Position numbers and translations under genes: made by a program. Under the pieces are notes generated by a model, which ran no database searches, was not told the origin of the DNA, and was given only the letters and a program-made list of their open reading frames with translations. A stretch of DNA of 60,571 nucleotides, the filler included, from Candidatus Hydrogenedentota bacterium (GTDB taxonomy: Bacteria > JBFMHD01), in the NCBI GenBank assembly GCA_040752395.1. It is 6 parts of 6 records of this genome, joined end to end, with 100 filler letters (N's around TTAATTAATTAA, not from the genome) between each part and the next. Parts side by side here need not be neighbours in the genome. Positions count along the whole stretch, not along the records: positions 1 to 10,261 come from JBFMHD010000093.1; positions 10,362 to 20,577 come from JBFMHD010000094.1; positions 20,678 to 30,834 come from JBFMHD010000095.1; positions 30,935 to 40,801 come from JBFMHD010000096.1; positions 40,902 to 50,716 come from JBFMHD010000098.1; positions 50,817 to 60,571 come from JBFMHD010000099.1. One strand, 5' to 3'. This document shows positions 4,809 to 60,571 of this stretch, piece after piece (the first letter of the stretch is position 1; every line of letters starts with the position of its first letter).

Positions 4809-4878
4809 CCCATCAGTTATAGGTGGTGAAGAAATAAGAAGTGAGAAGTATCAGAACACCAAACACCGAACTTAAGAA
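4809..4878 (-). repeat. Partial mosaic intergenic repeat upstream of the DUF1116 gene
   Basis: CCCATCAGTTAT shared with 56551-56562; AAGAAGTGAGAAGTATCAG shared with the 5681-5950 and 10362-10725 elements; ACCGAACTTAAGAA shared with 42047-42060. Confidence 0.7.
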
Positions 4879-4934
4879 TACTATCGAAAGACTAAAGGAA
4901 TACACCATAATATTTTTAGGTACAGGGGTTTTAT

Positions 4935-5672
4935 TTAAATCTCAATTTCCTCTGGAAGAGTAAATTTTTCATTTGCTTTTAATAGTTCAGGTGGTACTGG
5001 TCGTTGAAACTCAGCACCTACAAGGTCTCTCAAATACTTTTTTACTCGTTTATCCCAATAATCTTTTGTCATATAAAAGACTTTAGCTCCGCCAAGTTCA
5101 TGTTGGTACTCGGGATAAGGTTTAGAGGGTTGAGCCATCTGGATAGCCCATCGTTTAAATCCGTTATAGCTCTCATAGGTTGCCCAGAACTCTTTCTGAC
5201 CCAATATATCAAAACAGTATTCAGCTTTAGCATAATACATAGTTGCTCCAGCGCGCATTCCGCGGGCAAAAGCCATAGTATGTAAAGAGATATTTATATC
5301 TTCATTCCATAGCCTGCCATTACAGAAACCTGCTAATTTTCCGTCAATCAAACCTACGAAGGTATATGGGTCTTTTAGTCTTTTACGGATAACGCCGAGG
5401 AGTTCTGCATAGACACGGATGCCAACTATATCATAAAAATCTTTTCCTTCTTTAAATTGTTCGCTAGCTACTAATTTTTGCATCATTTCTATAAGTAGAG
5501 GGAATTCATCTTCTCTTGCTTCTCTTATAACCATATTCTTGCCTTTAAGAGTGATGAATGCAGGTGGGTATGGTTTCTGGGCTAATGGTGGTAGTTGAAA
5601 CAGGGCCTCGAGTTCGCTGACATCGAACTCTATTTTTTCTTGAGACACTTTACAGGGAACTTTTTCTTTCAT
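4935..5672 (-). CDS. GNAT-family N-acetyltransferase-like protein
   Basis: MVIREAREDE...FVGLIDGKLAGF GNAT-like strands. Confidence 0.65.
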   Translation of the reverse strand: MKEKVPCKVSQEKIEFDVSELEALFQLPPLAQKPYPPAFITLKGKNMVIREAREDEFPLLIEMMQKLVASEQFKEGKDFYDIVGIRVYAELLGVIRKRLKDPYTFVGLIDGKLAGFCNGRLWNEDINISLHTMAFARGMRAGATMYYAKAEYCFDILGQKEFWATYESYNGFKRWAIQMAQPSKPYPEYQHELGGAKVFYMTKDYWDKRVKKYLRDLVGAEFQRPVPPELLKANEKFTLPEEIEI

Positions 5673-5680
5673 AACTAATA

Positions 5681-5950
5681 TCCTCCTCTGAAAAAGTAAG
5701 AAGTAAGAAGTGAGAAGTATCAGGACAGGCTACAGGCTTCGGACTACAGCCGGCTGGAACCCGAAGCCCGGAGCCTGAAGCCAACATATCATCTTTAGTT
5801 TTTCATCCTTTGTGTAGAACGCAATAACCCAATAACCCAAGAACCCAATAGTGTAGAGCGCAAACCGCGCTCATGAGTACTCCTTCGAAAAAGTTCGGAG
5901 TTCGGAGCTCGTATTTATTATTACGAACTCCTAACTCCTATCTTTTTCAT
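5681..5950 (-). repeat. Mosaic intergenic repeat, modules A-B-C-D, ending in SD of the GNAT gene
   Basis: Segments near-identical to 51806-52083, 42020-42256 and 54361-54540. Confidence 0.95.
5803..5874 (-). CDS. Putative module-B mini-ORF MSAVCALHYWVLGLLGYCVLHKG (23 aa)
   Basis: GAAGGAG-N5-ATG; open to a TGA overlapping the next ATG. Confidence 0.35.
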   Translation of the reverse strand: MSAVCALHYWVLGLLGYCVLHKG

Positions 5951-6221
5951 GGGATTCCGGTATCTCCAATCAACAATTTTTTTCTTTACATTAAATTTTT
6001 TTGAGAATAATTCAATTCCTGGTAGACCCATTTTTTTTCTACCACTTTTTACTTCAATTGCGATTATTGATTTATGCTTGCAAATTACAAAATCAACCTC
6101 GCGATTGTTACCAGCCCAGTAAAATAACTCTATACTGTCTGGGTCCTGTAAGTACTTGTATAAAACGTCTCTTCTCTCGTAATCTTTTAAAAATTATGTC
6201 TACAGCATTTCTTTTGAACAT
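5948..6221 (-). pseudogene. AAA_14/DUF4143 ATPase remnant with large internal deletion
   Basis: MFKRN...FIQVLTGPRQ (start of Walker A) joined out of frame to IELFYW...EVDFV...IAIEVKSG (C-terminal PD-(D/E)XK part). Confidence 0.75.
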
Positions 6222-6338
6222 TTAGCCACCAAAACCGTCTGGTATTTTACTCATCATCCTGAGTAATTTTACTCAAAATTATTAACAATGTCAATAGTCT
6301 TGTTTCTGAATAAAGCAAGTGGAGATAACTGGAAAGAG

Positions 6339-9250: not shown

Positions 9251-9277
9251 AGAAAATTACTTTGTCAGTACCTAATT

Positions 9278-10361: not shown

Positions 10362-10725
10362 GGCACAAAGTATGAAAAGAGTCACAAGTCGCAAGTCGTG
10401 AGTCAAAACAGGACTCGAGACTCAAGACTCAAGACTCAAGACTTTTCAGCAGGCTTTGGGCTTTTGGCTCCAGCCGGCTGTAGTCCGTAGCCTGTAGCCA
10501 GAATTATTAGAGTTACAGCGTTTTTCAGAGGATAGGAGATAGGAGTTAGAAGTTAGGAGTTCGTAATAATAGCTCCGAGTTCCGAACTTTTTTCGAAGTT
10601 TATGAGGTCAAGTAGTGAGGGTCAAAAGACCCGTAGTAGGCAAATAAATTTGCAATTTGCAATTTACAATGGAGCGAAGCGACAAGAAGCAAGATAATGG
10701 AAGAAGTGAGAAGTATCAGAAAAAA
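10362..10725 (+). repeat. Mosaic intergenic repeat, modules S-C-T-A-J plus inverted F/D, upstream of the atp operon
   Basis: Near-identical blocks at 12651-12820, 20504-20577, 17587-17660, 23429-23452. Confidence 0.95.
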
Positions 10726-11402: not shown

Positions 11403-11419
11403 ATAAATAAAATTAATGC

Positions 11420-11448
11420 TTGCACGGATACTGTGATATATTTACAAT
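11420..11448 (+). promoter_or_regulatory. Sigma70-type promoter of the higBA remnant
   Basis: TTGCAC-N17-TACAAT. Confidence 0.6.
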
Positions 11449-11461
11449 AATTCAAGATATT

Positions 11462-11623
11462 ATGGTTATCTCTCTTGGCAACCAGGCGACTGCGGATTTA
11501 TATCATAACCGACAGACATCACGCGTACGTCGGTTTCCACGTGATATTATACCAACAGCATTAAGAAGATTAGACATGTTAAATGCGATTACATCCTGGC
11601 ATTCTCCTCCTGCGTATCAATGA
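11462..11623 (+). pseudogene. higB: HigB/RelE-family toxin, truncated
   Basis: MVISLGNQATADLY...ALRRLDMLNA matches the HigB N-terminus; C-terminal half missing. Confidence 0.8.
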
Positions 11624-11783
11624 AATTGTCCAAAAAAAACGAGGGGTAACCCCTGAAACTGCATGGTTATTAGCACAAGCGTTTGGCACCTCGACTGAAT
11701 TCTGGATCAATTTGCAGACCTCATTTGAGCTATCCAGGCCAAAACCTAAACGAGCTATTCCAAAACCGAAACTTGCAGTATGA
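11583..11783 (+). pseudogene. higA: HigA antitoxin, internally deleted
   Basis: HPG-ILL joined directly to RINEIV..KRGVTPETAWLLAQAFGTSTEFWINLQ. Confidence 0.8.
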
Positions 11784-11787
11784 AATT

Positions 11788-12582: not shown

Positions 12583-12585
12583 AAC

Positions 12586-12821
12586 GAGGAGTTGTCATGA
12601 GCGTTTTTGCGTTTTTGCGCTCTACACAAAGTATGAAAAACTAAAGATGATATGAAAAGAGTCGTGAGTCGTGAGTTGCAAGTCGTGAGTCAAAACAGGA
12701 CTAAAGACTCAAGACTCAAGACTTTTCAGCAGGCTTTGGGCTTTTGGCTCCAGCCGGCTGTAGTCCGTAGCCCGTAGCCTGTACCCCGAATTATTAGAGT
12801 TACAGCGTTTTTCAGAGGAGG
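12586..12821 (+). repeat. Mosaic intergenic repeat, modules B(short)-S-C-T, ending in SD of atpE
   Basis: Shared blocks with 10362-10532 and 36911-37014. Confidence 0.95.
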
Positions 12822-12826
12822 TTATT

Positions 12827-14263: not shown

Positions 14264-14518
14264 ATGTCTGTCAGCGCACGGCTGGATGATTCGATACTAA
14301 ACAAGCTTAATTTAATTAGTCAAATTGAAGGTTTATCTAAATCCAAAATTATAGCAAAGAGTATATCCGAATATTTCAAGAGACATATCCCGGATAACAC
14401 CCCGTATAAAATAGGAGAATTACTTTTTGGCAAATATCAGAGCGGGAAAAGTGATTTATCTTCGAACAGAAAAAAATATTTAAAAGAGAAACTGAATGAA
14501 AAATATCGCAATTATTGA
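14264..14518 (+). CDS. Ribbon-helix-helix (CopG-like) antitoxin
   Basis: SVSARLD...SKSKII...LFGKYQSGKSDLS; overlaps the PIN gene. Confidence 0.85.
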   Translation: MSVSARLDDSILNKLNLISQIEGLSKSKIIAKSISEYFKRHIPDNTPYKIGELLFGKYQSGKSDLSSNRKKYLKEKLNEKYRNY

Positions 14519-16628: not shown

Positions 16629-17498
16629 ATGCCATCGGTTCGAGATATAAAAAGACGTATAAGATCAGTAAAAAACATTCAGCAGATTACCAAAGCTATG
16701 AAGATAGTAGCAGCTACGAAACTTCGGAAAGCACAGGAAGCTATACTGCGAGCCCGACCATATGCCATAGCTTTAGAAAACCTTATAGCTCGGCTCGCTA
16801 AAAGAGTTGATCATTCTAAACATCCGCTTCTACATATCCCGGAGAAAAGGGGCCAGATAGGTATAATGGTTATAACTGGTGACAGAGGGCTCTGTGGCTC
16901 ATTCAATGCAAATATTATCAGAAAGACTTTATATTTTTTAGAGAATGAGACCAAAGACAAAGAAGTAGAGCTTCTTCTTATAGGACGGAAAGGTTATGAT
17001 TATTTTAAGAGACGAAAATATAAAATTCGAGATTATTATGCTAATTTTTTTGAAGAATTAAGTTATGCGAATGCTATTGCTATTACAGATAAATTATGCG
17101 ACTTCTTTTTACAACACCACTTTGATGAGGTGTATCTTATCTATAACTGGTTCAAGAGTGTTTTGACACAGCAGGTGCTGGTACAGAAGATTTTACCAAT
17201 AGAACCAGTAAAAATAGAAGAGACTGAACTAATGAATATAGATTATCTTTACGAACCCTCGATTGATAAAGTGCTTGAAAAATTGATACCGCGATATTTA
17301 GTAGTTGAGGTCTGGCGATGTTTGCTTGAATCAGTATCAGCAGAGCATGCAGCAAGGATGACAGCTATGGAAAACGCGACAAAAAATGCATGTGAGATGA
17401 TAGATAAACTGACCCTGACGTTTAACAGAGCAAGGCAGGCAAGTATAACAAAAGAAATGTGTGAAATCGTTGCAGGCGTTGAAGCTCTCAAAGGTTAA
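16629..17498 (+). CDS. atpG: F1 subunit gamma
   Basis: ITKAMKIVA, DRGLCGSFN, RQASITKE. Confidence 0.99.
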   Translation: MPSVRDIKRRIRSVKNIQQITKAMKIVAATKLRKAQEAILRARPYAIALENLIARLAKRVDHSKHPLLHIPEKRGQIGIMVITGDRGLCGSFNANIIRKTLYFLENETKDKEVELLLIGRKGYDYFKRRKYKIRDYYANFFEELSYANAIAITDKLCDFFLQHHFDEVYLIYNWFKSVLTQQVLVQKILPIEPVKIEETELMNIDYLYEPSIDKVLEKLIPRYLVVEVWRCLLESVSAEHAARMTAMENATKNACEMIDKLTLTFNRARQASITKEMCEIVAGVEALKG

Positions 17499-19118
<1,620 letters not shown>

Positions 19119-19133: not shown

Positions 19134-19355
19134 ATGAAATATACTATTATATTAAAGAAAGGGAAAGAGAGTGGATATACAGCGGTTGTCCCTGCGTTAA
19201 AAGGATGCGTTTCACAAGGGAAGACAAGAACAGAAGCCTTGAAAAATATTAAAGAAGCGATTCAATTATATGTTGAGACATTATTAGAAGATGGGATGAC
19301 TGTCCCAAGAGAAGAATATAAAGACATAGTGGAATTGAAGGTTGCAGTTAGATGA
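19134..19355 (+). CDS. hicB: HicB-family antitoxin
   Basis: GYTAVVPALKGCVSQGKT..EAL.NIKEAI. Confidence 0.93.
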   Translation: MKYTIILKKGKESGYTAVVPALKGCVSQGKTRTEALKNIKEAIQLYVETLLEDGMTVPREEYKDIVELKVAVR

Positions 19356-20426: not shown

Positions 20427-20429
20427 TAA

Positions 20430-20577
20430 TTGAAAGATTGAAAGATTAAAATTTTTTCTGATACTTCTTACTTTCAAAGGCACAAAGGCACAGAGGCACA
20501 AAGTATGAAAAGAGTCGTGAGTCGCAAGTCGTGAGTCAAAACAGGACTCGAGACTCAAGACTCAAGACTCAAGACTT
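20430..20577 (+). repeat. Mosaic intergenic repeat (G'-D'-GGCACARA array-S), contig end
   Basis: Module S near-identical to 10372-10448. Confidence 0.93.
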
Positions 20578-20677: not shown

Positions 20678-20900
20678 CCAAAGCCTGCTGAAAAGTCTTG
20701 AGTCTTGAGTCTCGAGTCCTGTTTTGACTCACGACTTGCGACTTTTGACTCTTTTCATATCATCTTCAGTTTTTCAGACGTTGTGTAGAGCGCAAAAACG
20801 CAATAATCCAAGAACCCAATAGTGTAAAGTGCAACCCACGCTCATGAGTACTCCTGTGAAAAAGTTAATGAGTTCAAGAGTTGAGGAATTAAAAAGTAAA
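20678..20900 (-). repeat. Mosaic intergenic repeat, modules B-S-C(start), contig end
   Basis: Reverse complement of the 12597-12740 blocks. Confidence 0.93.
20774..20845 (-). CDS. Putative module-B mini-ORF MSVGCTLHYWVLGLLRFCALHNV (23 aa)
   Basis: CAGGAG-N5-ATG; 72-nt open frame. Confidence 0.35.
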   Translation of the reverse strand: MSVGCTLHYWVLGLLRFCALHNV

Positions 20901-20918
20901 TATCATCTTCGTTTTAAG

Positions 20919-23410: not shown

Positions 23411-23480
23411 CCTCTATCTCCTGAGTTCGGGTCTTGTGACCCTCACTACTACTTTTAATCTTTGTGCCTCTGCGCCTATC
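23411..23480 (-). repeat. Short mosaic repeat (GGCACA + module J GTAGTGAGGGTCACAAGACCC) upstream of trpB
   Basis: Matches 10612-10632 and 51235-51261. Confidence 0.75.
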
Positions 23481-30934: not shown

Positions 30935-31130
30935 CTACACTATTGTGTTCTTGGGTTATTGGGTTATTGGGTTATTGGGTTATTGGGTTATTGGGTTATT
31001 GCGTTTTTGCGTTATCTTGCTTCTTGCCTCTCGCTTCTTTCGTTATCTTTCTTTTTTGTTATCTTGCTTCTTGCCTCTCGCTTCTTGTTTCTACTTGATA
31101 TCATTAGAGTTACGGCGTTTTTCGGAGGAG
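30935..31130 (+). repeat. Mosaic intergenic repeat, modules B-F-T, ending in SD of sat
   Basis: (GGGTTATT)6 array, TTCTTGC array, ATTAGAGTTACGGCGTTTTTCGGAGGAG. Confidence 0.95.
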
Positions 31131-31135
31131 TGTTT

Positions 31136-32281: not shown

Positions 32282-32383
32282 GGAGTCAAAGAGTCGAGAG
32301 TCAGGAGTCAGACTTCTTGCTTCTTGCCTCTTGCCTCTTGCTTCTACTTGATATTATTAGAGTTACAATGTTTTTCAGAGGAG
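32282..32383 (+). repeat. Mosaic intergenic repeat (GAGTC array-F-T)
   Basis: Near-identical to 44345-44430. Confidence 0.93.
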
Positions 32384-32387
32384 ATCA

Positions 32388-36879: not shown

Positions 36880-36910
36880 ATTACGCATTTCGTATTTTGA
36901 ATTTTTTAAA

Positions 36911-37014
36911 GGATGTTGGCTTCAGTCTCCGGGCTTTTGGCTCCAGCCGGCTGTAGTCCGTAGCCTGTAGCCTGTACCCCGAATTATTAGAGTTACAGCG
37001 TTTTTCGAAGGAGG
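36911..37014 (+). repeat. Mosaic intergenic repeat, modules C-T, ending in SD of fba
   Basis: Matches 12735-12820. Confidence 0.95.
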
Positions 37015-37021
37015 ATAATTT

Positions 37022-40679: not shown

Positions 40680-40690
40680 GATTTCTTCGA

Positions 40691-40801
40691 AAGATTGAAA
40701 GATTGAAAGATACGGCAAGGAAGTGTATATTTTCGCTTTCTTTACTTTTAACTTTTGACTTTTTACTTTTAACTTGTCATAGGAGTTAGAAGTTAGGAGT
40801 T
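40691..40801 (+). repeat. Mosaic intergenic repeat, modules G-A (contig end)
   Basis: Near-identical to 17499-17608. Confidence 0.95.
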
Positions 40802-40901: not shown

Positions 40902-40950
40902 TCCTTTCTGTCTCCTGTCTTCTAATTTTGAATTTTGAATTTTGAATCTT
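40902..40950 (+). repeat. Repeat fragments (CTGTCTY and TTTTGAA arrays) at contig start
   Basis: (AATTTTG)3; CTGTCTCCTGTCTTCT is the reverse complement of module M. Confidence 0.7.
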
Positions 40951-42014: not shown

Positions 42015-42019
42015 TATAA

Positions 42020-42256
42020 AGAGGCAAGATATTCGGTTCACTGATAACCGAACTTAAGAAGCTTCACGTTTTTCAGAGGAGTCAACATGAGCGCGGGTTG
42101 CGCTCTACACTATTGTGTTATTGGGTTCTTGTGTTATTGGGTTCTTGGGTTATTGGGTTATTGCGTTCTACACAAAGGATGAAAAATATAGGAGTTAGGA
42201 GTTTGTAATAATAGCTACGAACTCCGAACTCCGAACTTCAAAGTTTTTCGGAGGGG
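42020..42256 (+). repeat. Mosaic intergenic repeat, modules B-A, ending in SD of fliE
   Basis: Shared blocks with 5803-5950 and 51880-52074. Confidence 0.95.
42087..42182 (+). CDS. Putative module-B mini-ORF MSAGCALHYCVIGFLCYWVLGLLGYCVLHKG (31 aa)
   Basis: AGAGGAG-N5-ATG; 96-nt open frame. Confidence 0.35.
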   Translation: MSAGCALHYCVIGFLCYWVLGLLGYCVLHKG

Positions 42257-42263
42257 TGATTAA

Positions 42264-44278: not shown

Positions 44279-44296
44279 TAATGATAATTTTTATAT

Positions 44297-44325
44297 TTGC
44301 AATTTTCTAAAAAATATGATATAAT
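44297..44325 (+). promoter_or_regulatory. Internal sigma70 promoter before fliG
   Basis: TTGCAA-N17-TATAAT with extended -10 TG. Confidence 0.65.
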
Positions 44326-44344
44326 AAAGATTAAAAAGTTAAAA

Positions 44345-44430
44345 ATTAGAAGTTAGGAGTCAGGAGTCAGACTTCTTGCTTCTTGCTTCTACTTGCTATT
44401 ATTAGAGTCACAATGTTTTTCAGGGGGGGA
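44345..44430 (+). repeat. Mosaic intergenic repeat (GAGTC array-F-T), ending in SD of fliG
   Basis: Matches 32299-32383. Confidence 0.92.
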
Positions 44431-44437
44431 TATTAAA

Positions 44438-50153: not shown

Positions 50154-50164
50154 ATATATAAAGC

Positions 50165-50346
50165 AAAGATAGGAGACAGAAGACAGAAGACAGGAGGAGA
50201 AGACACAAAGGATATTAGGGGATGGGTCATAGGGGATGGGGTATATTAGGGGCGGCGCTTAGGGGTTAGGGGTCCGGAGTCGAGAGTCGTGAGTCAGGAT
50301 AAGACTGACGACTTAATGACCGGAGACTAGAGACTTTTCAGAGGAG
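50165..50346 (+). repeat. Mosaic intergenic repeat (module M, TAGGGG tract, S-like hairpin) ending in SD
   Basis: AGACAGA array; 5x TAGGGG; GAGTC/GACT arms; TTTTCAGAGGAG. Confidence 0.88.
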
Positions 50347-50353
50347 ATTATTT

Positions 50354-50545: not shown

Positions 50546-50716
50546 TAGGAGATAGTGGATCTGACTTTTTCGAAGGAGTCGTAATGAGCGCACTTTGCGC
50601 TCTACACTATTGGGTTCTTGGGTTCTTGGGTTCTTGGGTTCTTGCGTTTTTGGGTTTTTGCGCTCTACACAAAGGATGAAAAACTAAAGATGATATAAAA
50701 AGAGTCGTGAGTCACA
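50546..50716 (+). repeat. Mosaic intergenic repeat, modules B-S (contig end)
   Basis: Shared blocks with 12597-12680. Confidence 0.95.
50584..50679 (+). CDS. Putative module-B mini-ORF MSALCALHYWVLGFLGSWVLAFLGFCALHKG (31 aa)
   Basis: GAAGGAG-N5-ATG; 96-nt open frame. Confidence 0.35.
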   Translation: MSALCALHYWVLGFLGSWVLAFLGFCALHKG

Positions 50717-50816: not shown

Positions 50817-51130
50817 TGCCTGAGCTTTATAACTTCCATTGCGATCTTTTCATGTTCCTCACGTCGGACAATTACTTCATATAAAGTATTAAGCCGTTGA
50901 TTTGTTTCATCGATTCGATTATTTGTTTCATCGATTCGATTATCTAAGCGCATTATATGAGTATTAATATCAGAAATTCTTAGAGACATCTCACCCATAG
51001 TTTTATGTATACCTGTTATCCCAGCCTTTATACCTGTTATCTCACCCTTAACAGTGGATATCTCTATTTGTATTTTTTCGAGTTCTGGCAAAAACATTGT
51101 TTTAAAAGCAGTTATTATTTCGTCTTTCAT
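50817..51130 (-). CDS. Coiled-coil hypothetical protein (partial, runs off the contig)
   Basis: RIDETN heptad repeats encoded by a 21-bp duplication. Confidence 0.7.
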
Positions 51131-51396
51131 AATTTTGACCACCTTAAAATCATCTTTATATATTTCAATATATCTTATTTTTCAGATATTTGTCAAGAAT
51201 TTGTTAAGAGATTTCTTGAAAAACCTCATTTTTTAAAGACGGGTCTTGTGACCCTCTTTACATTATATTGATTATATTGAAATTACAAAAAATAGAAAAT
51301 GTAGTGAGCATCTTTAGATGCGATAAGCAGGGTTTAAAAGAGACCTGCTTAATTTTTTTTGACAAAAGGGGTAAAAATTTTATATATGAGTCTCAA

Positions 51397-51795: not shown

Positions 51796-51805
51796 AATAT
51801 ACACT

Positions 51806-52083
51806 CTCCTCTGAAAAACGTTGTAACTCTAATAATATCAAATAGAAGCAAGAAGCAAGATAAACAAACATCTGGTTTTTCATGCTTTGTGTAGAGCGCA
51901 AAAACGCAAGAACGCAATAACCCAAGAACCCCAAAAACCCAAAAACCCAATAGTGTAGAGCGCAACCCGCGCTCATGTTGACTCCTTCGAAAAAGTTCGG
52001 AGTTCGGAGTTCGGAGCTCGTATCTATTATTACGAACTCCTAACTTCTAACTCCTAACTCCTATCTTTTTCATCCTTTGTGTA
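51806..52083 (-). repeat. Mosaic intergenic repeat, modules A-B-F-T, with no downstream gene
   Basis: Full set of shared blocks; SD points into the 3' end of a convergent ORF. Confidence 0.95.
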
Positions 52084-52225
52084 CCCCCTTAGAGAACCTA
52101 AGTCAACTTATATGTCAACAAATTGTGGTCAGGCCGTTACTTTGTATCTACCTTAAACATTCAATTGACTTTATAAATGATTTTATTATAATGTTTTATA
52201 TTGCACGGATTAGAGGTTATGCTTT

Positions 52226-53625: not shown

Positions 53626-54354
53626 TCAAAGAAAAAACTTAAATGTTTCGGGTTTGAGTTTAAGTATAATTCTATATTCCTCAATAGCATTTAATATATC
53701 TATAGATAGTTCTTCAATAAATTTCAGTTCAAGGATGTCTTTCAGATTTACACAAAGTGGCATACCTGTGAATATTTTCTTTTTATCATCAGAGAGCTCT
53801 GTTTGTAAATAAAGATATAAACCAACCATACTTCCAAGTCCTGTAGCGATACTAATAAAATCAGTTTCTGGATACAAACTTTTTGCAATATATCTTGCAA
53901 TGGTTTTAAATGAAGAATTGTTAACAAGTTCTATTATTTCTTCAAGTAGCACGAATTTTCGTTTATGCGCAGCTAAATCAATCATCAATCCTCTGCCACG
54001 TAACATACTATCAACATTATCTGTAACAAATGAAAGGTAGTCACCAGCTTCTTTATAAGCAAGTGTCAACAAACCATCAGCAATAAGAAGATGTATAGCT
54101 TTATCATCTTTATCCATTTCTCTACGCAGGACTAATTTTATAAGATAAAATGAAAGATTCACGAGCTCAATGCTAAATAAAAACCTTTTGTCTTTTTCTT
54201 CAACTTCTTTATCCCAGCCTTTAAACATATGTAAACCGAATTCATATCGTAAAGGTCTATAACTTCTATCCGTAATAATTTTTATTTTTCTTTTAGTATT
54301 TGCGAAAGGGGATAATTGTAATTCCTTTTCCAATAATTCATAAAATGTTTTCAT
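53626..54354 (-). CDS. Hypothetical protein, possibly a degenerate polyprenyl-synthase fold
   Basis: RPL...IELV...LLIADGLLTLAY resemble isoprenyl synthase helices, but no DDxxD. Confidence 0.5.
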   Translation of the reverse strand: MKTFYELLEKELQLSPFANTKRKIKIITDRSYRPLRYEFGLHMFKGWDKEVEEKDKRFLFSIELVNLSFYLIKLVLRREMDKDDKAIHLLIADGLLTLAYKEAGDYLSFVTDNVDSMLRGRGLMIDLAAHKRKFVLLEEIIELVNNSSFKTIARYIAKSLYPETDFISIATGLGSMVGLYLYLQTELSDDKKKIFTGMPLCVNLKDILELKFIEELSIDILNAIEEYRIILKLKPETFKFFL

Positions 54355-54360
54355 AGACTC

Positions 54361-54540
54361 TCCTCCTCTCCTCTGAAAAAGTAAGAAGTAAGAAGTGGGA
54401 AGTATCAGGACAGGCTACAGGCTACGGACTACAGCCGGCTGGAGCCCGAAGCCCGGAGCCAACATATCATTTACTTCTTGCATCTTTCGTTATCTTTCTT
54501 TCCGTTATCTTGCTTCTTTCGTTATCTTGCCTCTACCTAT
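54361..54540 (-). repeat. Mosaic intergenic repeat, modules F(inv)-C-D, ending in SD
   Basis: Matches 5683-5790 and 57605-57790. Confidence 0.95.
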
Positions 54541-54546
54541 CATCTC

Positions 54547-56544
54547 TTATGGCACGAAATAAACTGCTCTATCCTGTATAAGCTGTGCCTTGGGGTCAGG
54601 TGGCTCATTGCGGAAAAGATTCAAAATGACTTTTACTTCAAACATAGTTTTATAAGGCACTTTTCTATAAGGTGTTCTGTAAACCACTAAATATTCTTCC
54701 TGAAAATTATAATCTTTTAATCTTCTAAACTCATTTTTAAAATACGGTGAATTAATATCAAAAAAATTTCCACCTGTCCACTGAGATATATATCTGGCAT
54801 TACTTAAAATTTTATCACTTACAATGCTTATAGGTAGATGCAGTCCTTTTGCAAGGTATATAATTTTTCTGCAAGAATCTTCTTTTAAATCTTCAGCTGT
54901 TATAAGTATTACATTTCTTAAGTTCTTATCAAGATAAGCATTCCATAAAGCTTTATCCAGAGCTGATTCAAGATTTTTATAATAGATGCTACCCATATCA
55001 GTTATGGTTTTGTTCTTCTTACTATCAATAATAAAATAATACTTATTTTTAATACCTATAAAATCTAACTCCTTTTCTAAAACTTCTACTAATTTTTTTT
55101 CATTCTCTTTGAGTTTAGAAATCACTATGTGTACTGACGAAGTTTTATCACTTCTTATTTTTGAGACATCGATTGGATAAACTCTGTTATTATTTTCATA
55201 TACTGCAAAATTATTTTTATTAAGGTTTGGATAATGAAATCCTCTGTCATCAGTAACAGTAAAGTAAATGCCGAGTAGATGTTCTTTTTCATAATGAGAA
55301 ACATCTATTTTCTTTATATCAAGAAAAATCCTTTCGTCTTTAATAAGAGAGGGTCGATAAATTCTTATTCTGCTTTTTTCAAGGTCAGATAAATAGAGAT
55401 AATCTTTATTATCAATCTCAATATCAGAAATAGATACAATCGTATCAGAATTAATATTATCAAGAATTAAAGTTTCGTTTAAAAGATTCCCATTTTTCAT
55501 TTTAAATACATTACCGTTTTTTGTTACAATAAAAAATAAATCATCTTTAATTGAAGAGAATCCCTGGGGTTCAAAAAATTGAGGATTTTTAAATTCCTGC
55601 AGTATCAATCCATTTATATCGAACTTCTCTATCCTGTTATTATTCTTATCAATCACATAAAGAAATCCGTCCCTATCGAATAATAAATCACAAGGATTAA
55701 TAAAGAGACCAGGTTCTATACCATAACCACCAATCATACTTATGCAGTTGTAGCTTTTATCAAAAATAGAGATACGATGATTCCCGCTTTCTGTTATATA
55801 AATATTTTCAAATACATCCTTTGTAATAAATGATGGTCCTGATAATTCACCTTTTAACTTTCCAAGCCCACCTATCTCTTTAATTGTTTTTCCATTATAA
55901 TTTATAATCCTTACCTTATTAATATTAAATAAACCAACGGTTATTTTATCTTTTTCAAAGAAAAACCCTTTGGGTTTACTCCCTCTTTTAAATTTAAACT
56001 CTTTTATTCTCTCACCGTTCTGATTTAATATTACTATTTCATCAGTAGCATATGATGAGAGATATAAATAATTATCTGAGGGGTTATAATAAAGTGCGAC
56101 TGGTAACGAAAAAAATCCTGTGCCTATATCTTTTCCGTAAATCTCTTTTATTAAAGTATATTTATCAGTAGAAAAAATATCATCAGTTGTACCAATCTTT
56201 ATGTTTTCCCAGTTTTTCGAGCGTTTAATCTTCCATCCAACAGGATAAGTATCACCATAACCTTTGTCCTGTATCTTCTGCCAGCATTCATTAGCCTTTT
56301 TTGGATCGCCCATTAAAAGGTTAAGTTTTCCGAAATAATAAAGAGTTTCAATATTATCAGGATAAAAATTTAACGACTCGTTGAAATAATTTTTAGCAGA
56401 ATTATAGTCACCAAGATAAAACGAAATTATTCCTTCATAGAGTCTCTTACCCGACTGAAGTAATTCATAGTATCCTGGTTCTTTAGCCCGGGTATTTGTC
56501 ACTAATACTATTAAGAGTAAAATACTGCTAAAATAATTCTTCAT
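54547..56544 (-). CDS. Secreted TPR + NHL-repeat protein with vWA-like C-terminus
   Basis: Signal peptide; TPR helices; GELSGP..I..D...NIYITESGNHRISIFD NHL repeats. Confidence 0.85.
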   Translation of the reverse strand: MKNYFSSILLLIVLVTNTRAKEPGYYELLQSGKRLYEGIISFYLGDYNSAKNYFNESLNFYPDNIETLYYFGKLNLLMGDPKKANECWQKIQDKGYGDTYPVGWKIKRSKNWENIKIGTTDDIFSTDKYTLIKEIYGKDIGTGFFSLPVALYYNPSDNYLYLSSYATDEIVILNQNGERIKEFKFKRGSKPKGFFFEKDKITVGLFNINKVRIINYNGKTIKEIGGLGKLKGELSGPSFITKDVFENIYITESGNHRISIFDKSYNCISMIGGYGIEPGLFINPCDLLFDRDGFLYVIDKNNNRIEKFDINGLILQEFKNPQFFEPQGFSSIKDDLFFIVTKNGNVFKMKNGNLLNETLILDNINSDTIVSISDIEIDNKDYLYLSDLEKSRIRIYRPSLIKDERIFLDIKKIDVSHYEKEHLLGIYFTVTDDRGFHYPNLNKNNFAVYENNNRVYPIDVSKIRSDKTSSVHIVISKLKENEKKLVEVLEKELDFIGIKNKYYFIIDSKKNKTITDMGSIYYKNLESALDKALWNAYLDKNLRNVILITAEDLKEDSCRKIIYLAKGLHLPISIVSDKILSNARYISQWTGGNFFDINSPYFKNEFRRLKDYNFQEEYLVVYRTPYRKVPYKTMFEVKVILNLFRNEPPDPKAQLIQDRAVYFVP

Positions 56545-56550
56545 TTGTAT

Positions 56551-56595
56551 CCCATCAGTTATCTGTCTTCTGTCTTCTGTCTCCTGTTTTCTATC
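56551..56595 (-). repeat. Short leader repeat (module M + ATAACTGATGGG)
   Basis: GGAGACAGAAGACAGAAGACAG as at 50172; tail as at 4809. Confidence 0.8.
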
Positions 56596-57564
56596 CTAAT
56601 ACATCCGTGTTAAAGGATATATTTTTGTGTTATCATAAATAACAACATCTTTTAAAACAGAACATGCACCAATCCTGCAATTCTTTCCTATAATCGAGCG
56701 TCCCCTGATAATAACTCCAGTTTCAATGTATGTATCCATACCTATGGACGTCTCATCTGAGATATAGCAGGTATCTGGATTTTCAAATGATACGCCTTCT
56801 AACATAAGAATTTTTATTTTTCTCTGGTTCCTTAATTTTTCAACATAAGCCAATTCTTCTCTTTGATTTATCCCGCAAATCTCAGCACTATCATCCGTGG
56901 TATAGGCTGTAACCATCCTTTTCTTTTTATTAAGATAATAAATAACATCAGTAAGATAATATTCTTTCTGGTCGTTTTTATTTTTAAGCAGGTTTAAAAC
57001 ATTTAAAACAGGCTCTTTTTTAAAAATATATACCCCAGAGTTAACCTCTTTTATTTTAAGTTCGTTTTTATTAGCATCTCTATGTTCAACTATTTTTAAA
57101 ACTCTATTATTTTTATCTTTGACGATTCTGCCATATCCAGCTGGATTTTCAAAAATAGCTGTTAAAATTATAGCATCTTGCTCTGTTTTCTCATATATTT
57201 CAAGTAGTTTTTTTATAGTAGCAAGACTAATTAAAGGCATATCACCGCAAAAAACAAAAATATCATCGCTTTTAACTTGCCCACTGTTTCTCGCAGCCAT
57301 AAATGCATCGCCTGTTCCAAGCTGGTTTTTCTGAATAGCAAAATGAATCCTTACAGAATCAGAAGGAAAATACCGTTTGATGGTTTCAGAAATTAATTTA
57401 TAGTCTGGTGGTACCACAATAATTATATTATTAATTTGATTTACTTTGCAGATAGTTTTTAAAAGATAACAAATCATAGGGGTATCATCAATAGGATGAA
57501 GTACTTTTGGCAATTTGGTTTTCATTCTTTTGCCAATGCCGGCTGCAAGTATCACTGCATCCAT
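56596..57564 (-). CDS. glmU: GlmU-like UDP-GlcNAc pyrophosphorylase, short C-terminus
   Basis: LAAG.GKRMK..LPKVLH, QLGTGDA, GYGRIV, EVNSG, EYYLTD. Confidence 0.85.
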   Translation of the reverse strand: MDAVILAAGIGKRMKTKLPKVLHPIDDTPMICYLLKTICKVNQINNIIIVVPPDYKLISETIKRYFPSDSVRIHFAIQKNQLGTGDAFMAARNSGQVKSDDIFVFCGDMPLISLATIKKLLEIYEKTEQDAIILTAIFENPAGYGRIVKDKNNRVLKIVEHRDANKNELKIKEVNSGVYIFKKEPVLNVLNLLKNKNDQKEYYLTDVIYYLNKKKRMVTAYTTDDSAEICGINQREELAYVEKLRNQRKIKILMLEGVSFENPDTCYISDETSIGMDTYIETGVIIRGRSIIGKNCRIGACSVLKDVVIYDNTKIYPLTRMY

Positions 57565-57571
57565 TGTATAT

Positions 57572-57800
57572 CTCCTCTGAAAAACGTTGTAACTCTAATA
57601 ATTCGGGCTACAGGCTACGGACTACAGCTGGCTGGAGCTCGGGGCCCGGAGCCTGAAGTCAACATATCATCTACTTCTTGCATCTTTTCCGTTATCTTGC
57701 TTCTTGCTTCTTTCGTTGTCTTTCTTTTCCGTTTCTCAACCTCAACCTCAACCTTAACCTTTTCTTTCTTTCCGTTATCTTGCCTCTATATATCATCTCC
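57572..57800 (-). repeat. Mosaic intergenic repeat, modules F(inv)-C-T, ending in SD of glmU
   Basis: Shared blocks plus a GGTTGA array. Confidence 0.95.
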
Positions 57801-57807
57801 TATGAAA

Positions 57808-58938
57808 TTATTCTACCTCTAAATCCGGGTTAATCTGCATAAGAATCTTTCCTTCTTTAAGATAAAATCCACATTGTTTTACAGAACTTGTCACAAGATG
57901 AGAGATACCAGCAATCTCAATTTTCACCCCCGGGTAAATTTCATTAAATACCACAACATTACAATACCCTTTGGCTTTGCGTTTTCTAATCTTTAAATCA
58001 AGTTCTTTTCTTTTATTTTCAGCATCCTCCATTTTCTTTTTCAGTTCAAAATAAAGTTTACTCTGTAAAGCGAGTTGTTCTTTTTTGTCCTGAGGGAGTG
58101 TCCTTATCTTTTCACCCATTGTTTTGATAACCATAATAAGTTTTTCAAGTCGTTTAAGTTTTGGTAAGTCTTCTCTTACAATACTCTCAAGTTCTAAGAA
58201 GTCGCTCACCCATTTTTTCATCTTGTCATTTTTAATAATGATTTCAACAGGTGTCATCTCTTTGTTTCCTAAAAACTTCACAGCCACTCTATCGCCCGCC
58301 TCAATTGTAGAGTCTACTATGGTACCTTTATAGAGTGTACAATCAATACTATCACTAGCCACTACTTTACTTTTTTTAATCTCACCTGTATTAACTCTAT
58401 CTTTAACTCTTATATCAGCTTCTCTGATATAAGGTGATGTAAGGGATGCTGCTTCAATCCATGTAGTTGACATACCATTTATGCCTCCCTCAATAACTAA
58501 CTCTTCGCCACATATTATAACAGCATCCTGTACATAGCCTTTAAGAACTATCTTTCCAGAAGCCTCGACTCTTGAACCTCCTTCAATATTCCCTATTATT
58601 TCAAGATTTTTATCAAACTTTACAAGAGTATCAGCTCCTTTAATAGACTTTTTTATAGAATAAGTAGTTTTATCCGGATCAATAAATGATCCATCTGGTA
58701 GCGCAACCTCTTTTACTTCAGCAATCTGTTTAGCTTTTTCTTCCTCTTTTTTATATAAATCTTCAATATCTTTAATCTCTTCATCTATCTCACCATACTC
58801 AATACCCCAATCTTTAAGTTTATTCAATTGTGATTCAGTAATAGTATCTCCTTTTGAGAATATTGGTCCGCCATCATAATATATATCTCTATTAAGAACT
58901 TTATTGGGTTTAAGTTCACTAATTTTAATAGTAGCCAT
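57808..58938 (-). CDS. FapA/DUF342-family protein
   Basis: IIGNIEGGSRVEASGKIV beta-solenoid, coiled coil, IYPGVKIEI. Confidence 0.82.
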   Translation of the reverse strand: MATIKISELKPNKVLNRDIYYDGGPIFSKGDTITESQLNKLKDWGIEYGEIDEEIKDIEDLYKKEEEKAKQIAEVKEVALPDGSFIDPDKTTYSIKKSIKGADTLVKFDKNLEIIGNIEGGSRVEASGKIVLKGYVQDAVIICGEELVIEGGINGMSTTWIEAASLTSPYIREADIRVKDRVNTGEIKKSKVVASDSIDCTLYKGTIVDSTIEAGDRVAVKFLGNKEMTPVEIIIKNDKMKKWVSDFLELESIVREDLPKLKRLEKLIMVIKTMGEKIRTLPQDKKEQLALQSKLYFELKKKMEDAENKRKELDLKIRKRKAKGYCNVVVFNEIYPGVKIEIAGISHLVTSSVKQCGFYLKEGKILMQINPDLEVE

Positions 58939-60438
58939 TTATCCCCTCAATTTTAAAAGAGATTTATAGATATCTTCAGCTTCTTCAGGATAACTAACAA
59001 AACTAATTCTTACTGGATTATTATTTATTGTTTTATCAAGTTCTACGGTTAAAAGAGTTCTTCTAATCTCTTTTTTATCTTTGCCTGGAAGAACTGCTAT
59101 AAGTTCACCTGGATATACACTTATAACGTTTTTCGTAGTGGTTAATTTATTATATATTTCTTCTCTAAACTTTCTTATTTCTTCACCTGATATAATTTCA
59201 GACTGCACAACAAATTTTATAAGAGTTAACGGGTAATCAAGTTCTTTTGCCCTGATAAACTCATCCTTAAGAACCTCAACAAGCAATCTAAATGGTTCAT
59301 TTCTGATTTTGGATTCAAACTCAAGAGTTTTCGCGGTAACGATGGCTGGTCCAAGCATCGAACCAAGAATGGTAAAAAGCTTTAAAAGAAAATCTTTATC
59401 TTCGAGTTTTTCATAATCATTTAAGATTATTAAACCTCCTATCTTATCTCCGGCAGGTAATGGTATTATTACATCGTCTCCATTAAACGAGGTACCACAT
59501 ATATTTTTATCAGATAATTGGTCAAAATATAAAGCCTCGGTTTTTAATCCTTTTTCAGATAATTCATTTTGTGATAATTTTTCAGGCAGGGTAAGGTCTT
59601 CCTTCTCAAACCCAAGTTTTTTAAGAAAATCTTCTTCGGATTTCTGATATATAGCACCTGATTTTGCTCCAAACCCTGTCTGTAGTGCTTCAAGCGATAA
59701 TTGAAATACATCATTAATATTATCACTTGAGCTGATTATTTTACCCACCTCATAGATAGCAGAGAGCTCATCATTTGCCTTTTGTAACTTTTCATGAGAT
59801 TTTTTAATCTCTAAAACCATTTCATTAAATACCTGGGCAAGTGTACCGATCTCGTCCCTGGTCCTGGGCGTGACACTCTGATTTAAATCACCCTCTCTTA
59901 CTTTAATGCTCGCAGCTGTTAGTTTTTCAAGCTGTTTTGTTAACCTTGTTGATAAAAGACTTGAAATAATAATAGAAAACAATACAAGAATAACCGCAAA
60001 TTTAACCATCTCCTTTTTTATCTCGTCCCTTTTTTGTAAAAAACTATCTCTGTTATAAAATATCTCAACGAAGCCTAATTCAACATCTGTTCCTGGTATA
60101 ATGATACGAGATGCAAATTTTTTATATTTACCAAGTACACCCCTTTTTTCAGCAAGCGTTTTGTTTTCGTCATCTTTGACAATTATTAATGCGATGTCTT
60201 TATCAGATGCAACTAATAGTTCTATAACAGTCTCTATAGTAGAAAGCTCATTCTTTAATATATTCTCAGAAAGGCTCGGCATTAAAGTATTGGTTATAAC
60301 ATTTACTTTTCGTATGATATCATCTTCTGTGATCTGATCTAATCGATAAAGAAATATATTCGTACCTATGCTTACTGTTATTATGATAAAAATAGCCACA
60401 AGAAGAGCTATTTTGCCTGCAAGAGTTAGTTTAAACAT
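58939..60438 (-). CDS. Membrane sensor with HAMP and GAF-like domains
   Basis: Two TM helices, GDLN...RDEIGTLAQVFNEM; start ATG 60438 after the repeat-borne SD. Confidence 0.85.
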   Translation of the reverse strand: MFKLTLAGKIALLVAIFIIITVSIGTNIFLYRLDQITEDDIIRKVNVITNTLMPSLSENILKNELSTIETVIELLVASDKDIALIIVKDDENKTLAEKRGVLGKYKKFASRIIIPGTDVELGFVEIFYNRDSFLQKRDEIKKEMVKFAVILVLFSIIISSLLSTRLTKQLEKLTAASIKVREGDLNQSVTPRTRDEIGTLAQVFNEMVLEIKKSHEKLQKANDELSAIYEVGKIISSSDNINDVFQLSLEALQTGFGAKSGAIYQKSEEDFLKKLGFEKEDLTLPEKLSQNELSEKGLKTEALYFDQLSDKNICGTSFNGDDVIIPLPAGDKIGGLIILNDYEKLEDKDFLLKLFTILGSMLGPAIVTAKTLEFESKIRNEPFRLLVEVLKDEFIRAKELDYPLTLIKFVVQSEIISGEEIRKFREEIYNKLTTTKNVISVYPGELIAVLPGKDKKEIRRTLLTVELDKTINNNPVRISFVSYPEEAEDIYKSLLKLRG

Positions 60439-60445
60439 TTTTGGT

Positions 60446-60571
60446 CCTCCTCTGAAAAACATTGTAACTCTAATGATATCAAGTAGAAGCAAGAAGCAAG
60501 ATAACGGAAGAAGTGAGAGGTATCAGGACGGGCTACAGGCTACAGGCTACGGACTACAGCCGGCTGGAGCC
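60446..60571 (-). repeat. Mosaic intergenic repeat, modules C-D-F-T (window end)
   Basis: Shared blocks; supplies SD of the HAMP gene. Confidence 0.95.

Follow-up and report, generated by a model that had tools for sequence, protein, structure and literature searches.

What are the repeated sequences that occupy about half of all gene-to-gene gaps in this stretch of DNA, including those of the ATP-synthase and flagellar operons? The window, i.e. the whole stretch of 60,571 nt that was analysed, consists of six contigs of ~10 kb each with N spacers between them, and the genome sample comprised 60 kb + 2.2 kb. The host is an uncultured, deep-branching bacterium. Self-blastn of the window gave 25 repeated intervals with a sum of 3118 nt, essentially all of them intergenic. 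In a spacer census, 22 of the 45 spacers of at least 20 nt contained at least 20 nt of window-repeated DNA, and such DNA accounted for 3041 of 7530 intergenic nucleotides versus 42 of 52470 coding ones. All 32 period-7 arrays and 10 of the 11 period-8 arrays in the window were intergenic, and other periods were almost absent. A search with 14 typed module cores yielded 49 fuzzy matches (mean of 1.15 in 20 shuffles), and a Hamming scan with 15 cores yielded 85 matches, a few of them spurious. These data confirm the many-copy mosaic family proposed in the original prediction, except that its figure of about 25 intergenic stretches comes down to 22 sites.

The building blocks are tandem arrays of 7-nt units, some of 8 nt. 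Modules A, S, C, and G consist of an array, a short loop, and a second array of near-complement; on folding, they form "heptad hairpins" of 6-bp helices with one mismatch per 7-nt unit (1x1 loops), a trait absent from the original prediction. Module B combines a small REP-like palindrome with an octamer array, D and F are pyrimidine-rich arrays, and T is a unique 28-nt block. The z-scores of the 17 hairpin copies folded ranged from -1.2 to -9.1; 10 copies were matched by none of their 200 shuffles and 15 by at most 4, while two C copies were not better folded than their shuffles (14 and 21 of 200 matched them). The transcribed (sense) strand was more stable than the antisense strand in 15 of these 17 copies, with 50 sense versus 17 antisense G-U pairs. 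The copies are not independent, and the strand bias rests on four module families. Unit copy number varies between copies and also between the two arms of one hairpin. The C3 block shows 0-2 mismatches per 32 nt in seven true copies, and T shows 0-2 per 28 nt in eight of its nine copies.

These blocks are chained by short shared junction words, and the elements take up the whole spacer between a stop codon and the start codon that follows. By hand tally, 43 of 48 neighbouring pairs are colinear with a master order G<A<B<J<S<C<D<F<T, and four of the five exceptions are restarts at A, in line with the fixed grammar that had been proposed. Judged from sequence, most sites read as colinear subsets of this one order. 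Sequence subtypes of T and C track the upstream neighbour, so larger composites seem to have been copied as units, and the earlier wording that the system shuffles modules was too strong. Two junction words had been described as reused: CACAAAGNATGAAAA indeed occurs 8 times versus 0.08 expected, while AAGATGATATG is a weak case (7 versus 2.63 expected, with 7 reached in 2 of 100 shuffles). The predicted co-orientation with transcription was seen at 20 of 22 sites (hand tally). D and F are also found in inverted form (10684-10719, 54503-54535, and 57690-57788). The T block cannot be regarded as a constant terminal block, as had been assumed, because T at 10506 is internal and is followed by A. 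The usual end of an element is the Shine-Dalgarno (SD) word TTTTTCRRAGGAG (19 matches versus 0.81 expected).

As predicted, elements lie inside core operons, and the module orders named beforehand were recovered at their places, as indicated below. The atpB-atpE spacer (12583..12826, plus strand) contains SD-B(short)-J1-J2-S-C-T (named as B-S-C-T, 12586), with T ending 6 nt before the atpE ATG. In the atpG-atpD spacer (17490..17666, plus), G-A-SDword(variant) was found (G-A, 17499), the G array beginning at the atpG stop codon. The flgC-fliE spacer (42015..42263, plus) holds an inverted-F-like word, a small hairpin, and SDword-B-J1-A-SDword(variant) (B-A, 42020), and the fliF-fliG spacer (44279..44437, plus) holds a promoter-like TTGCAA-17-TATAAT, short G-, A-, and S-type arrays, F, and a variant T.

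Among the other plus-strand sites within contigs, the spacer between sat and a phosphodiesterase gene (32282..32387) contains (GGAGTCA)n-F-T, a J2-like word-C-T (36880..37021; C-T, 36911) precedes a class II fructose-bisphosphate aldolase gene, and an M array-(TTAGGGG/ATGGGT)n-S-like hairpin-SDword (50160..50353) precedes a Trm112-like gene. On the minus strand, a solitary pyrimidine-rich D (4829..4858; D core with 1 mismatch) lies in the spacer before an AllG-like gene (3558-4799), and J1-A-SDword-B-J1-J2-C-D-SDword (5673..5950; A-B-C-D, 5950-5681, minus) ends 10 nt before the ATG of gene 4935-5672. The spacer before a trpB-like gene (22196-23365) has a fragment with a GGCACAAAG-like word and an H hairpin (GGGTC..GACCC) (23428..23480, minus). 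A complete element, J1-A-SDword-B-J1-F-T (51796..52084, minus; A-B-F-T, 52083, minus), is an orphan: it is antisense to the plus-strand genes on either side, and no gene follows its T block. Further minus-strand sites are inverted-F arrays-J2-like word-C-D-SDword before gene 53626-54354 (54355..54546), a short M array, (AGACAGA)n, that makes up the spacer ahead of gene 54547-56544 (56545..56595), and inverted-F arrays-(GGTTGAG)n-inverted F-J2-like word-C-T before a nucleotidyltransferase gene, 56596-57564 (57565..57807).

Eight of the 12 contig ends lie inside elements, as expected if repeats break short-read assembly. A contig-start (B3/J1)-S-C-T-A-H-(AATTTGC)n-inverted F and D (10362..10721, plus) is located upstream of an atpZ-like gene, the first in the atp operon. 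Running into contig ends are (ATTGAAAG)n-D-like-(CAAAGGCA)n-J1-S (20427..20577, plus), a decayed A arm-SDword-B-J1-J2-S-C(5' arm) after gene 20919-21257 (20678..20918, minus), G then an A 5' arm after an amidohydrolase gene (40680..40801, plus; G-A, 40691), and an A-like array-SDword-B-J1-J2-S (50546..50716, plus). Two contigs start with B(octamer array)-F2 arrays-F-T, 5 nt before the ATP-sulfurylase ATG (30935..31135, plus; B-F-T, 30935), and with an inverted M array plus (AATTTTG)n (40902..40950, strand given as "."), respectively. Finally, C-D-F2-F-T before gene 58939-60438 (60439..60571, minus; C-D-F-T, 60571, minus) runs into the window end.

The usual element end has the form U5-C-RR-AGGAG and is placed 4-10 nt before an ATG; 10 of the SD words precede annotated gene ATGs and five precede the ATG of B. 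The strongest predicted SD pairing belongs to genes behind TTTTTCRRAGGAG: predicted anti-SD pairing was -10.75 kcal/mol for 12 element-led genes versus -6.47 kcal/mol for 39 others (p = 0.0006), a contrast that stems from one repeated word. The predicted accessibility of the region from SD to ATG did not differ (0.48 for the 12 element-led genes versus 0.47 for 31 others, p = 0.66). Because of the antisense orphan and the internal T, a role in supplying the SD is not obligatory.

The module set, which had been called unrecognised, gave no match in Rfam, in plasmid or phage records, in JGI metagenome contigs, or in 301 Nitrospirota genomes. Among 5.8 billion proteins, the nearest AtpG was 54% identical, and no close relative of the host was found. 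The mosaic family resembles heptamer SSR/STRR arrays as well as BIMEs and MIRUs. Its kind is already in print, namely heptamer intergenic repeats, some of them just before start codons (passages of PMC4679880 and PMC4692102). Heptamers are described as the commonest long SSRs, with slippage as the proposed origin (Mrazek 2007, as summarised in a passage of PMC4679880), and a part of the same source places heptamer repeats of Beggiatoaceae just 5' of start codons.

A question raised from these findings is whether the elements do anything for the cell. It is possible, though we hold it with reserve, that they are neutral or selfish filler, i.e. slippage arrays scattered by illegitimate recombination that survive only in a harmless orientation and position (no terminator, SD kept). 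Such survival would by itself account for the co-orientation and for the SD at the element end, and the filler reading agrees with the unchanged SD accessibility, the antisense orphan and internal T, the 13 of 26 co-directional spacers that have no element, and the over-representation of heptamer SSRs with no known role in many bacteria (passages of PMC4692102 and PMC4679880). However, the non-array blocks C3 and T are near-identical between copies, which needs recent spread, homogenisation, or selection; moreover, the transcribed strand is the one with more G-U pairs and greater stability, and the same 6+1 architecture is kept in every hairpin family.

We consider it rather doubtful that these are mobile elements at the DNA level, either gene-less (MITE-like) derivatives of inverted-heptamer-array cassettes around a small four-helix-bundle gene (23S rRNA intervening-sequence protein, PF05635) or units of the REP/BIME type that a RAYT transposase, encoded in another part of the genome, would mobilise. 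For the first option, PF05635 genes were present in 33 of 41 genomes of the cyanobacterial order sampled, with a period 6-9 array on at least one side in 26 of 30 loci and period-7 arrays nearby in 18 of 22 full loci. The density of period-7 arrays was 3.31/kb within 300 nt of these genes versus 0.17/kb farther out, a contrast that is partly trivial since the inner regions are intergenic and the outer ones mostly coding; strictly complementary flanking arrays occurred at only 5 of the 30 loci, and the single Nitrospirota IVP locus examined had no arrays. For the second, the reverse strand of B shows GTAG abutting a palindrome with a 6-bp stem, as in GTAG-tagged REPs (defined in a passage of PMC3733652), but the orientation here is locked to transcription and inverted REP dimers are absent, unlike in REP/BIME. 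The scanned ORFs of the window included no PF05635 (IVP) gene, Y1 or other transposase, RAYT, or reverse transcriptase, and no target-site duplication was seen by eye. With no transposase, empty site, or target duplication found and no close relative of the host, the mobility originally envisaged is unproven.

Translation of some modules appears improbable. Here, B would encode a small hydrophobic peptide or act as a mini-ORF like that of MIRUs, and would relay ribosomes across the spacer through start/stop overlaps; MIRUs are described as having an internal ORF, coupled at -4 nt, and as inserting at start codons (a passage of PMC12548453). In each of the six complete B copies, an ATG follows 5-7 nt after the SD word, whose predicted anti-SD pairing lies between -6.9 and -8.6 kcal/mol. 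In four of them, the TGA of the B ORF (23 or 31 aa) overlaps the next ATG as ATGA, and their octamer numbers are 4, 4, 7, and 7, a difference of three units (24 nt) that leaves the reading frame intact. Yet the other two copies are out of frame (chance of 4/6 in frame, ~0.1), and the overlapped ATG opens an ORF of only 3-9 codons, not a gene. The C frame differs between copies, 7- and 8-nt units cannot hold a frame as copy number drifts, and a 45-aa ORF had no homologue among proteins of 24-79 aa.

Slightly less credible still is that the elements are portable sigma-70-type promoters providing internal transcription starts before selected genes. A promoter-like site with 10 of 12 matches and a TG extension was found in the fliF-fliG spacer (44297-44325), and TTGAAA-17-TATATT in the G module copy scanned (17503-17531). 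Such sites were nevertheless not enriched (45 versus 35.6 +/- 6.1 and 80 versus 68.3 +/- 8.6 expected), T lacks a consistent -35/-10 pair suitably spaced from the ATG, and most elements lie within operons, where no promoter is needed. That the mosaics are chimeric joins of one uniform repeat is very hard to believe despite the short-read assembly and its contig ends in elements, as every site has unique flanks on both sides, the elements join gene pairs that are also neighbours in other bacteria (the four atp and flagellar pairs above), and an independent assembly (L089, 99% identical to window 1-193) has B3-J-C-T in the same order beside unique sequence.

Overall, the reading that we favour, as one somewhat better than even, is that these are lineage-specific, non-coding, gene-less, transcribed composite intergenic repeats that grow by slippage, spread by recombination, and serve through their hairpins and SD. 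Counting against it, atpA, whose output need equals that of atpD, has no element, and neither a recombination intermediate nor a polymorphism in copy number was seen in the genome sample. According to this favoured reading, the arrays would lengthen and shorten via slipped-strand mispairing, and the junction words may be where copy-paste recombination or gene conversion carries composites from one spacer to another; many variants are probably derived from longer composites by internal deletion. The elements would be transcribed as part of operon mRNAs and may persist because their hairpins act as intercistronic RNA structures, either protecting 3' ends or offering processing sites for double-strand RNases, while the U-rich tail and strong Shine-Dalgarno would restore or boost initiation on the next cistron.

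The mosaic repeats of the window are real and have their place in its spacers. Comparing the window with itself yielded 25 repeated intervals with a total of 3118 nt, which cover 3041 of the 7530 intergenic nt versus 42 of the 52,470 coding nt, and repeated DNA was found in 22 of the 45 spacers of at least 20 nt. The cores of the typed modules (G, A, B, S, C, D, F, T and M, together with the junction words J) matched 49 times compared with 1.15 times in shuffles, and a Hamming scan returned 85 matches, a few of them spurious. Based on TRF rows, with about 2.5 tandem copies of a 7-nt unit as the minimum for a heptanucleotide array, all 32 period-7 arrays were intergenic (4.26 per kb versus 0 per kb in coding DNA), as were 10 of the 11 period-8 arrays; periods 4–6 and 9–12 gave 0–3 arrays. 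The self-comparison, spacer census and module scans thus confirm the mosaic family described in the original prediction, and every module order that it had listed was found in its place. The claimed reuse of two junction words held strongly for CACAAAGNATGAAAA (8 occurrences versus 0.08 expected), while the second word was just weakly above chance.

The six contigs, each of about 10 kb and joined by N spacers, have an ordinary gene content: an F-type ATP synthase operon from an atpZ-like gene through atpC, a flagellar block from flgB through fliJ, and genes for ATP sulfurylase, class II aldolase, SHMT, TrpBA (trpBA), NiFe hydrogenase maturation and ArgRS. No tRNAs were found in the window. Searches with AtpG, AtpB and AtpD revealed no close relative of the host: the best AtpG match among 5.8 billion proteins has 54% identity, and the nearest relatives bear names from several phyla; the best AtpB match among species-representative genomes has 40% identity; and the best AtpD match has 76%, with top matches spread over many phyla. 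Two toxin-antitoxin pairs (window 14264–14912 and 19134–19575) lie inside the ATP synthase operon, namely a ribbon-helix-helix/PIN (VapBC-like) pair between atpH and atpA and a HicB/HicA pair between atpD and atpC. AtpA (14965–16623) has 552 aa, and its Pfam nucleotide-binding domain match is split into two stretches, which suggests an alpha-subunit insertion of several tens of residues. The 350-nt spacer before a DNA methylase gene (1569–1918) is G+C-richer and contains no repeats, long ORF or Rfam match; it could represent either an RNA that has escaped recognition or the remains of a gene. Next to elements or the atp operon there are also two long ORF-free stretches without any of the repeated modules, 5951–6338 (388 nt) and 11403–11682 (280 nt). 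In addition, 21-nt tandem repeats at 36283–36358, 50900–50943 and 51008–51049 are in-frame, forming 7-residue repeats within two coiled-coil-like ORFs (36139–36879 and 50819–51142).

Modules A, S, C and G share a hairpin design that is absent from the original prediction: a 7-nt array (8- and 7-nt units in G), a loop of 7–12 nt, and a near-complement array. In the 17 copies, these modules are predicted to fold into long hairpins composed of 6-bp helices with a 1×1 mismatch in each unit. The z-scores ranged from −1.2 to −9.1; none of 200 shuffles folded as well in 10 of the 17 copies and at most 4 of 200 did in 15, the folding of two C copies being not significantly different from shuffles. Each arm contains 2–4 units, and this number varies among copies and between the two arms, as slippage predicts. 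Of the 17 copies, which represent just four independent module families, 15 are more stably folded as the sense strand than as the antisense strand, and the sense strand contains 50 G-U pairs versus 17. This better folding and the G-U excess favor an RNA-level constraint on the transcribed strand, as judged from the predicted structures. As for the other modules, B comprises an SD-type word, an ATG, a palindrome with a 6-bp stem, and a variable octamer array bracketed by CTACAC, followed by CACAAAGGATGA; D and F are pyrimidine-rich arrays, which also occur as inverted copies; and T is a unique block of 28 nt.

By hand tally, the order G, A, B, J, S, C, D, F, T is kept in 43 of 48 neighboring module pairs, and four of the five exceptions are restarts at A. 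The same tally showed that the elements are oriented with the transcription of the flanking genes at 20 of 22 sites (site 40902 is ambiguous), bearing out the claim that they follow transcription inside core operons. The elements begin at the upstream stop codon or no more than a few nt from it and extend to the next start. They occupy 13 of 26 co-directional spacers, two of six divergent ones (both weakly) and neither of the two convergent ones, and four operon spacers (atpB-atpE, atpG-atpD, flgC-fliE and fliF-fliG) are among those occupied. The atpG-atpD spacer is 168 nt long here, compared with a median of 40 nt in the 65 of 80 other bacteria in which it was measured (at least as long in 7 of 65), a survey that is a weak stand-in for orthologous empty sites. 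One complete element (51796–52084) runs on the minus strand although both flanking genes are on the plus strand, and no gene follows it.

The shared terminal word of the elements, TTTTTCRRAGGAG, carries AGGAG (hereafter the SD word) and occurs 19 times versus 0.81 expected. Ten copies lie 4–10 nt before annotated start codons, and the genes behind the word include atpE, the ATP-sulfurylase gene (sat), the aldolase gene, fliE and a Trm112-like gene, with G-rich variants preceding atpD and fliG. Five copies stand 5–7 nt before the ATG of B, and the remainder are one internal copy, one orphan and two in coding sequence. Behind the T block, a gene start follows in 7 of 9 cases. The predicted anti-SD pairing was −10.75 kcal/mol for the 12 element-led genes versus −6.47 kcal/mol for the 39 others (p = 0.0006), a contrast that reflects one repeated word and not 12 independent events. 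The elements supply ribosome-binding sites inside core operons. According to partition-function folding, SD-to-ATG accessibility does not differ between genes with and without elements (0.48 versus 0.47, p = 0.66). Nor is an anti-SD switch supported: the 3' arm of A resembles an anti-SD, yet a 5-bp stem is the sole alternative pairing that involves the real SD, and the elements leave accessibility as it is. In scans, neither sigma-70 consensus sites nor the terminator consensus was enriched, the simple terminator rule missing mismatched hairpins. Between fliF and fliG, the repeat modules are preceded by a strong promoter-like site at 44297–44325, which consists of TTGCAA and a TG-extended TATAAT separated by 17 nt. 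On the minus strand, the SD word with one mismatch occurs at 26718–26730, just inside the annotated TTG start of a STAS-domain gene, the true start of which is probably at a downstream codon.

MIRUs, which are single 40–100-bp units, offer a different route by which such elements might act on the next gene. A review (PMC12548453) describes them as inserting at start codons with a coupled ORF, and the likeness to that description lies in the intercistronic, operon-oriented position, the anchoring at a gene start, and, in four of six copies of B, a short ORF within the element that ends in a 4-nt overlap with an ATG. The first of these is seen here between atpB and atpE, atpG and atpD, flgC and fliE, and fliF and fliG. 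In such a scheme, the mini-ORF of B (23 or 31 aa) would couple translation to the following cistron. It ends in ATGA in four of the six complete copies, but the other two are out of frame, and four of six has a chance probability of about one in ten; moreover, the overlapped ATG opens an ORF of just 3–9 codons rather than the real gene, and a natural 45-aa ORF containing the B peptide found no homologue among proteins of 24–79 aa. MIRU-like coupling is a minority possibility, and the window elements further differ from MIRUs in being heptamer hairpin mosaics. Module C was rejected as coding because its reading frame differs from copy to copy.

Sequence subtypes of T and of the 5' arm of C track the upstream neighbor, and so composites, rather than single modules, seem to be copied; at many sites the element resembles a longer master from which internal parts have been deleted. 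Elements are found at 8 of the 12 contig ends, as expected where repeats break short-read assembly, but assembly chimerism is an unlikely source of the mosaics, because the elements bridge gene pairs that adjoin in other bacteria and an independent assembly contains the identical J-C-T order beside unique sequence. The contig in question (L089, 2198 bp) is the sole related DNA found: its last 193 nt match window 1–193 at 99%, and it carries a B3-J-C-T element, behind which lie a 27-aa ORF and the gene for a large protein that looks secreted. The remaining contigs of its bin (G001) are unrelated, and L089 is a misbinned piece of the window's organism from a separate assembly. The module set had been called unrecognised, and it stayed so in every collection searched: the covariance models of Rfam gave no match at the gathering score and none at E ≤ 0.5; plasmid and phage records contained no match to the modules; the JGI metagenome contigs contained neither the T pattern nor a 27-mer of C, for which L089 was the sole match elsewhere; and none of the 301 Nitrospirota genomes sampled contained the A-hairpin pattern. 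An 18-mer of C gave mostly chance matches over species genomes.

In many bacteria, no long simple repeats are more over-represented than heptamers. They are described as the most frequent class of such repeats there, and slippage has been proposed as the cause (Mrazek 2007, per PMC4679880); G-rich heptamer arrays, some of them inverted, are reported to fill spacers of Xanthomonas and Nostoc (Rehm 2015, PMC4692102), and heptamers close to Nostoc start codons to affect reporter expression (bioRxiv 10.1101/2022.06.06.494920). As portrayed in two of these reports (PMC4679880, PMC4692102), heptanucleotide SSRs or STRRs resemble the window arrays in their tandem 7-nt units, intergenic location, several unit families per genome, variable copy number, stem-loops that some inverted arrays can form, and slippage as the proposed origin. 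Both the 7-nt tandem unit and the intergenic bias are present in the window; however, its arrays form part of a multi-module, colinear element that also contains unique blocks and junction words, and its units are unrelated and not G-quadruplex-forming. Strict STRRs belong to heterocystous cyanobacteria, whereas the host here is flagellated, deep-branching and non-cyanobacterial, as indicated by its flagellar, ATP sulfurylase and NiFe hydrogenase genes and by AtpG relatives of at most 54% identity from several phyla. The TAACTGA direct repeats found just upstream of start codons in marine Beggiatoaceae (MacGregor 2015, PMC4679880) are similar in that heptamers stand a few nt before the starts of unrelated genes, some essential, with a translational role proposed. 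That report describes one unit in simple direct repeats, with canonical ribosome-binding sites reported to be rare; in contrast, the window elements have many units, hairpin pairs and a built-in canonical strong SD. Membership of the TAACTGA type was rejected, as the units differ and the terminal word contains canonical AGGAG.

Among mosaic repeats, BIMEs and REPs are described as probably RNA-acting, located mainly downstream of genes and forming inverted dimers (Di Nocera 2013, PMC3733652). They resemble the window elements in being intergenic mosaics of palindromic units and linker motifs that are probably transcribed, with G-U pairing suggesting an RNA function (PMC3733652, PMC2817692). 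When a REP is defined as a 20–40 bp palindromic unit with a 6–13 bp stem, a short loop and an unpaired GTAG or CGTC tag at one end (PMC3733652), the 5' part of B has such a palindrome (GAGCGC-loop-GCGCTC, a 6-bp stem and a 4–5 nt loop, five copies); on the reverse strand of B, which resembles a GTAG-tagged palindrome of the kind described there, GTAG abuts this stem, but its last G is the first stem base. REPs are reported downstream of genes, including in convergent spacers, often as inverted dimers and linked to genes for RAYT, the REP-associated Y1 transposase (PMC3733652), whereas the window elements are orientation-locked and upstream or intercistronic, without dimers and with no RAYT seen among the ORFs scanned. 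Membership of the REP/BIME class was rejected on placement (0/2 convergent and 13/26 co-directional spacers, orientation locked at 20/22 sites, and no HH or TT dimers). In Streptococcus pneumoniae, BOX elements have a modular boxA-boxB(n)-boxC structure. By description, they are likewise modular composites with a variable internal unit number and transcribed intergenic repeats, but they have three modules and lack heptamer hairpins and an SD-bearing end, which, together with probably unrelated sequences, sets them apart. Overall, the heptamer-repeat and mosaic-repeat kinds are already known, and the window family combines features of published repeats while being a member of none.

The original prediction had taken the elements for a mobile or gene-converting system that targets operon junctions and shuffles modules, a reading that our analysis supports in part. 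An ordered, transcription-oriented mosaic family is what we observed; its function and mechanism of spread we infer from the sequence. The unique blocks show high identity between copies, which requires recent spread, homogenisation or selection. No target-site duplications were seen when nine left boundaries were compared by eye with right boundaries. As to a gene enclosed by copies, which the original prediction suggested looking for, the ORFs scanned in the 60-kb window included no transposase, RAYT, reverse transcriptase or gene for the 23S rRNA intervening-sequence protein (IVP; four-helix bundle, PF05635); PF05635 had no match among these ORFs, and NCBIfam gave nothing for the unnamed ones. 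Outside the window, PF05635 genes occur in 33 of 41 genomes of one cyanobacterial order, and period-7 arrays flank them in 18 of 22 full cyanobacterial loci (L127–L156). The array density was 3.31 per kb within 300 nt of these genes versus 0.17 farther out, about 20-fold, a contrast inflated by an imperfect control, since intergenic DNA close to the genes is set against mostly coding DNA farther away. Strictly complementary flanking arrays were found in just 5 of 30 cyanobacterial loci, and the one Nitrospirota IVP locus examined had no arrays. A literature search found nothing in print linking heptamer arrays with PF05635 genes. The layout of array, loop and near-complement array is common to the PF05635-flanking arrays and the window modules, whereas the window has no such gene and its loops are 7–12 nt; membership among IVP cassettes was rejected, since no four-helix-bundle gene lies between an array and its complement in the window. 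We hypothesize that heptamer-armed IVP cassettes may be the origin of this repeat class. An unlikely joint reading would extend this: the elements would be a mobile class with a translation-start module as sole cargo, gene-less descendants of such cassettes that copy into the stop-to-start gaps of operons; their mismatched hairpins would be double-strand-RNase sites at which the polycistronic mRNA is cut, and the U-rich strong-SD tail would re-launch the next cistron.

This genome is an unusually clean heptamer case, with an ordered grammar, a location in essential operons, and the next gene's ribosome-binding site carried by the element, so that an effect on mRNA processing or translation would be directly measurable with reporters. 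A genuine link to IVP cassettes would provide a genetic origin for the whole repeat class, and if the joint reading with RNase cutting and SD re-launch is true, cyanobacterial STRRs, the Beggiatoaceae repeats and the present mosaics would belong to a single superfamily that works in the same way across many phyla. If the hairpins are processing or stability signals, this would be a case of a repeat family reshaping how core operons are controlled between their cistrons.
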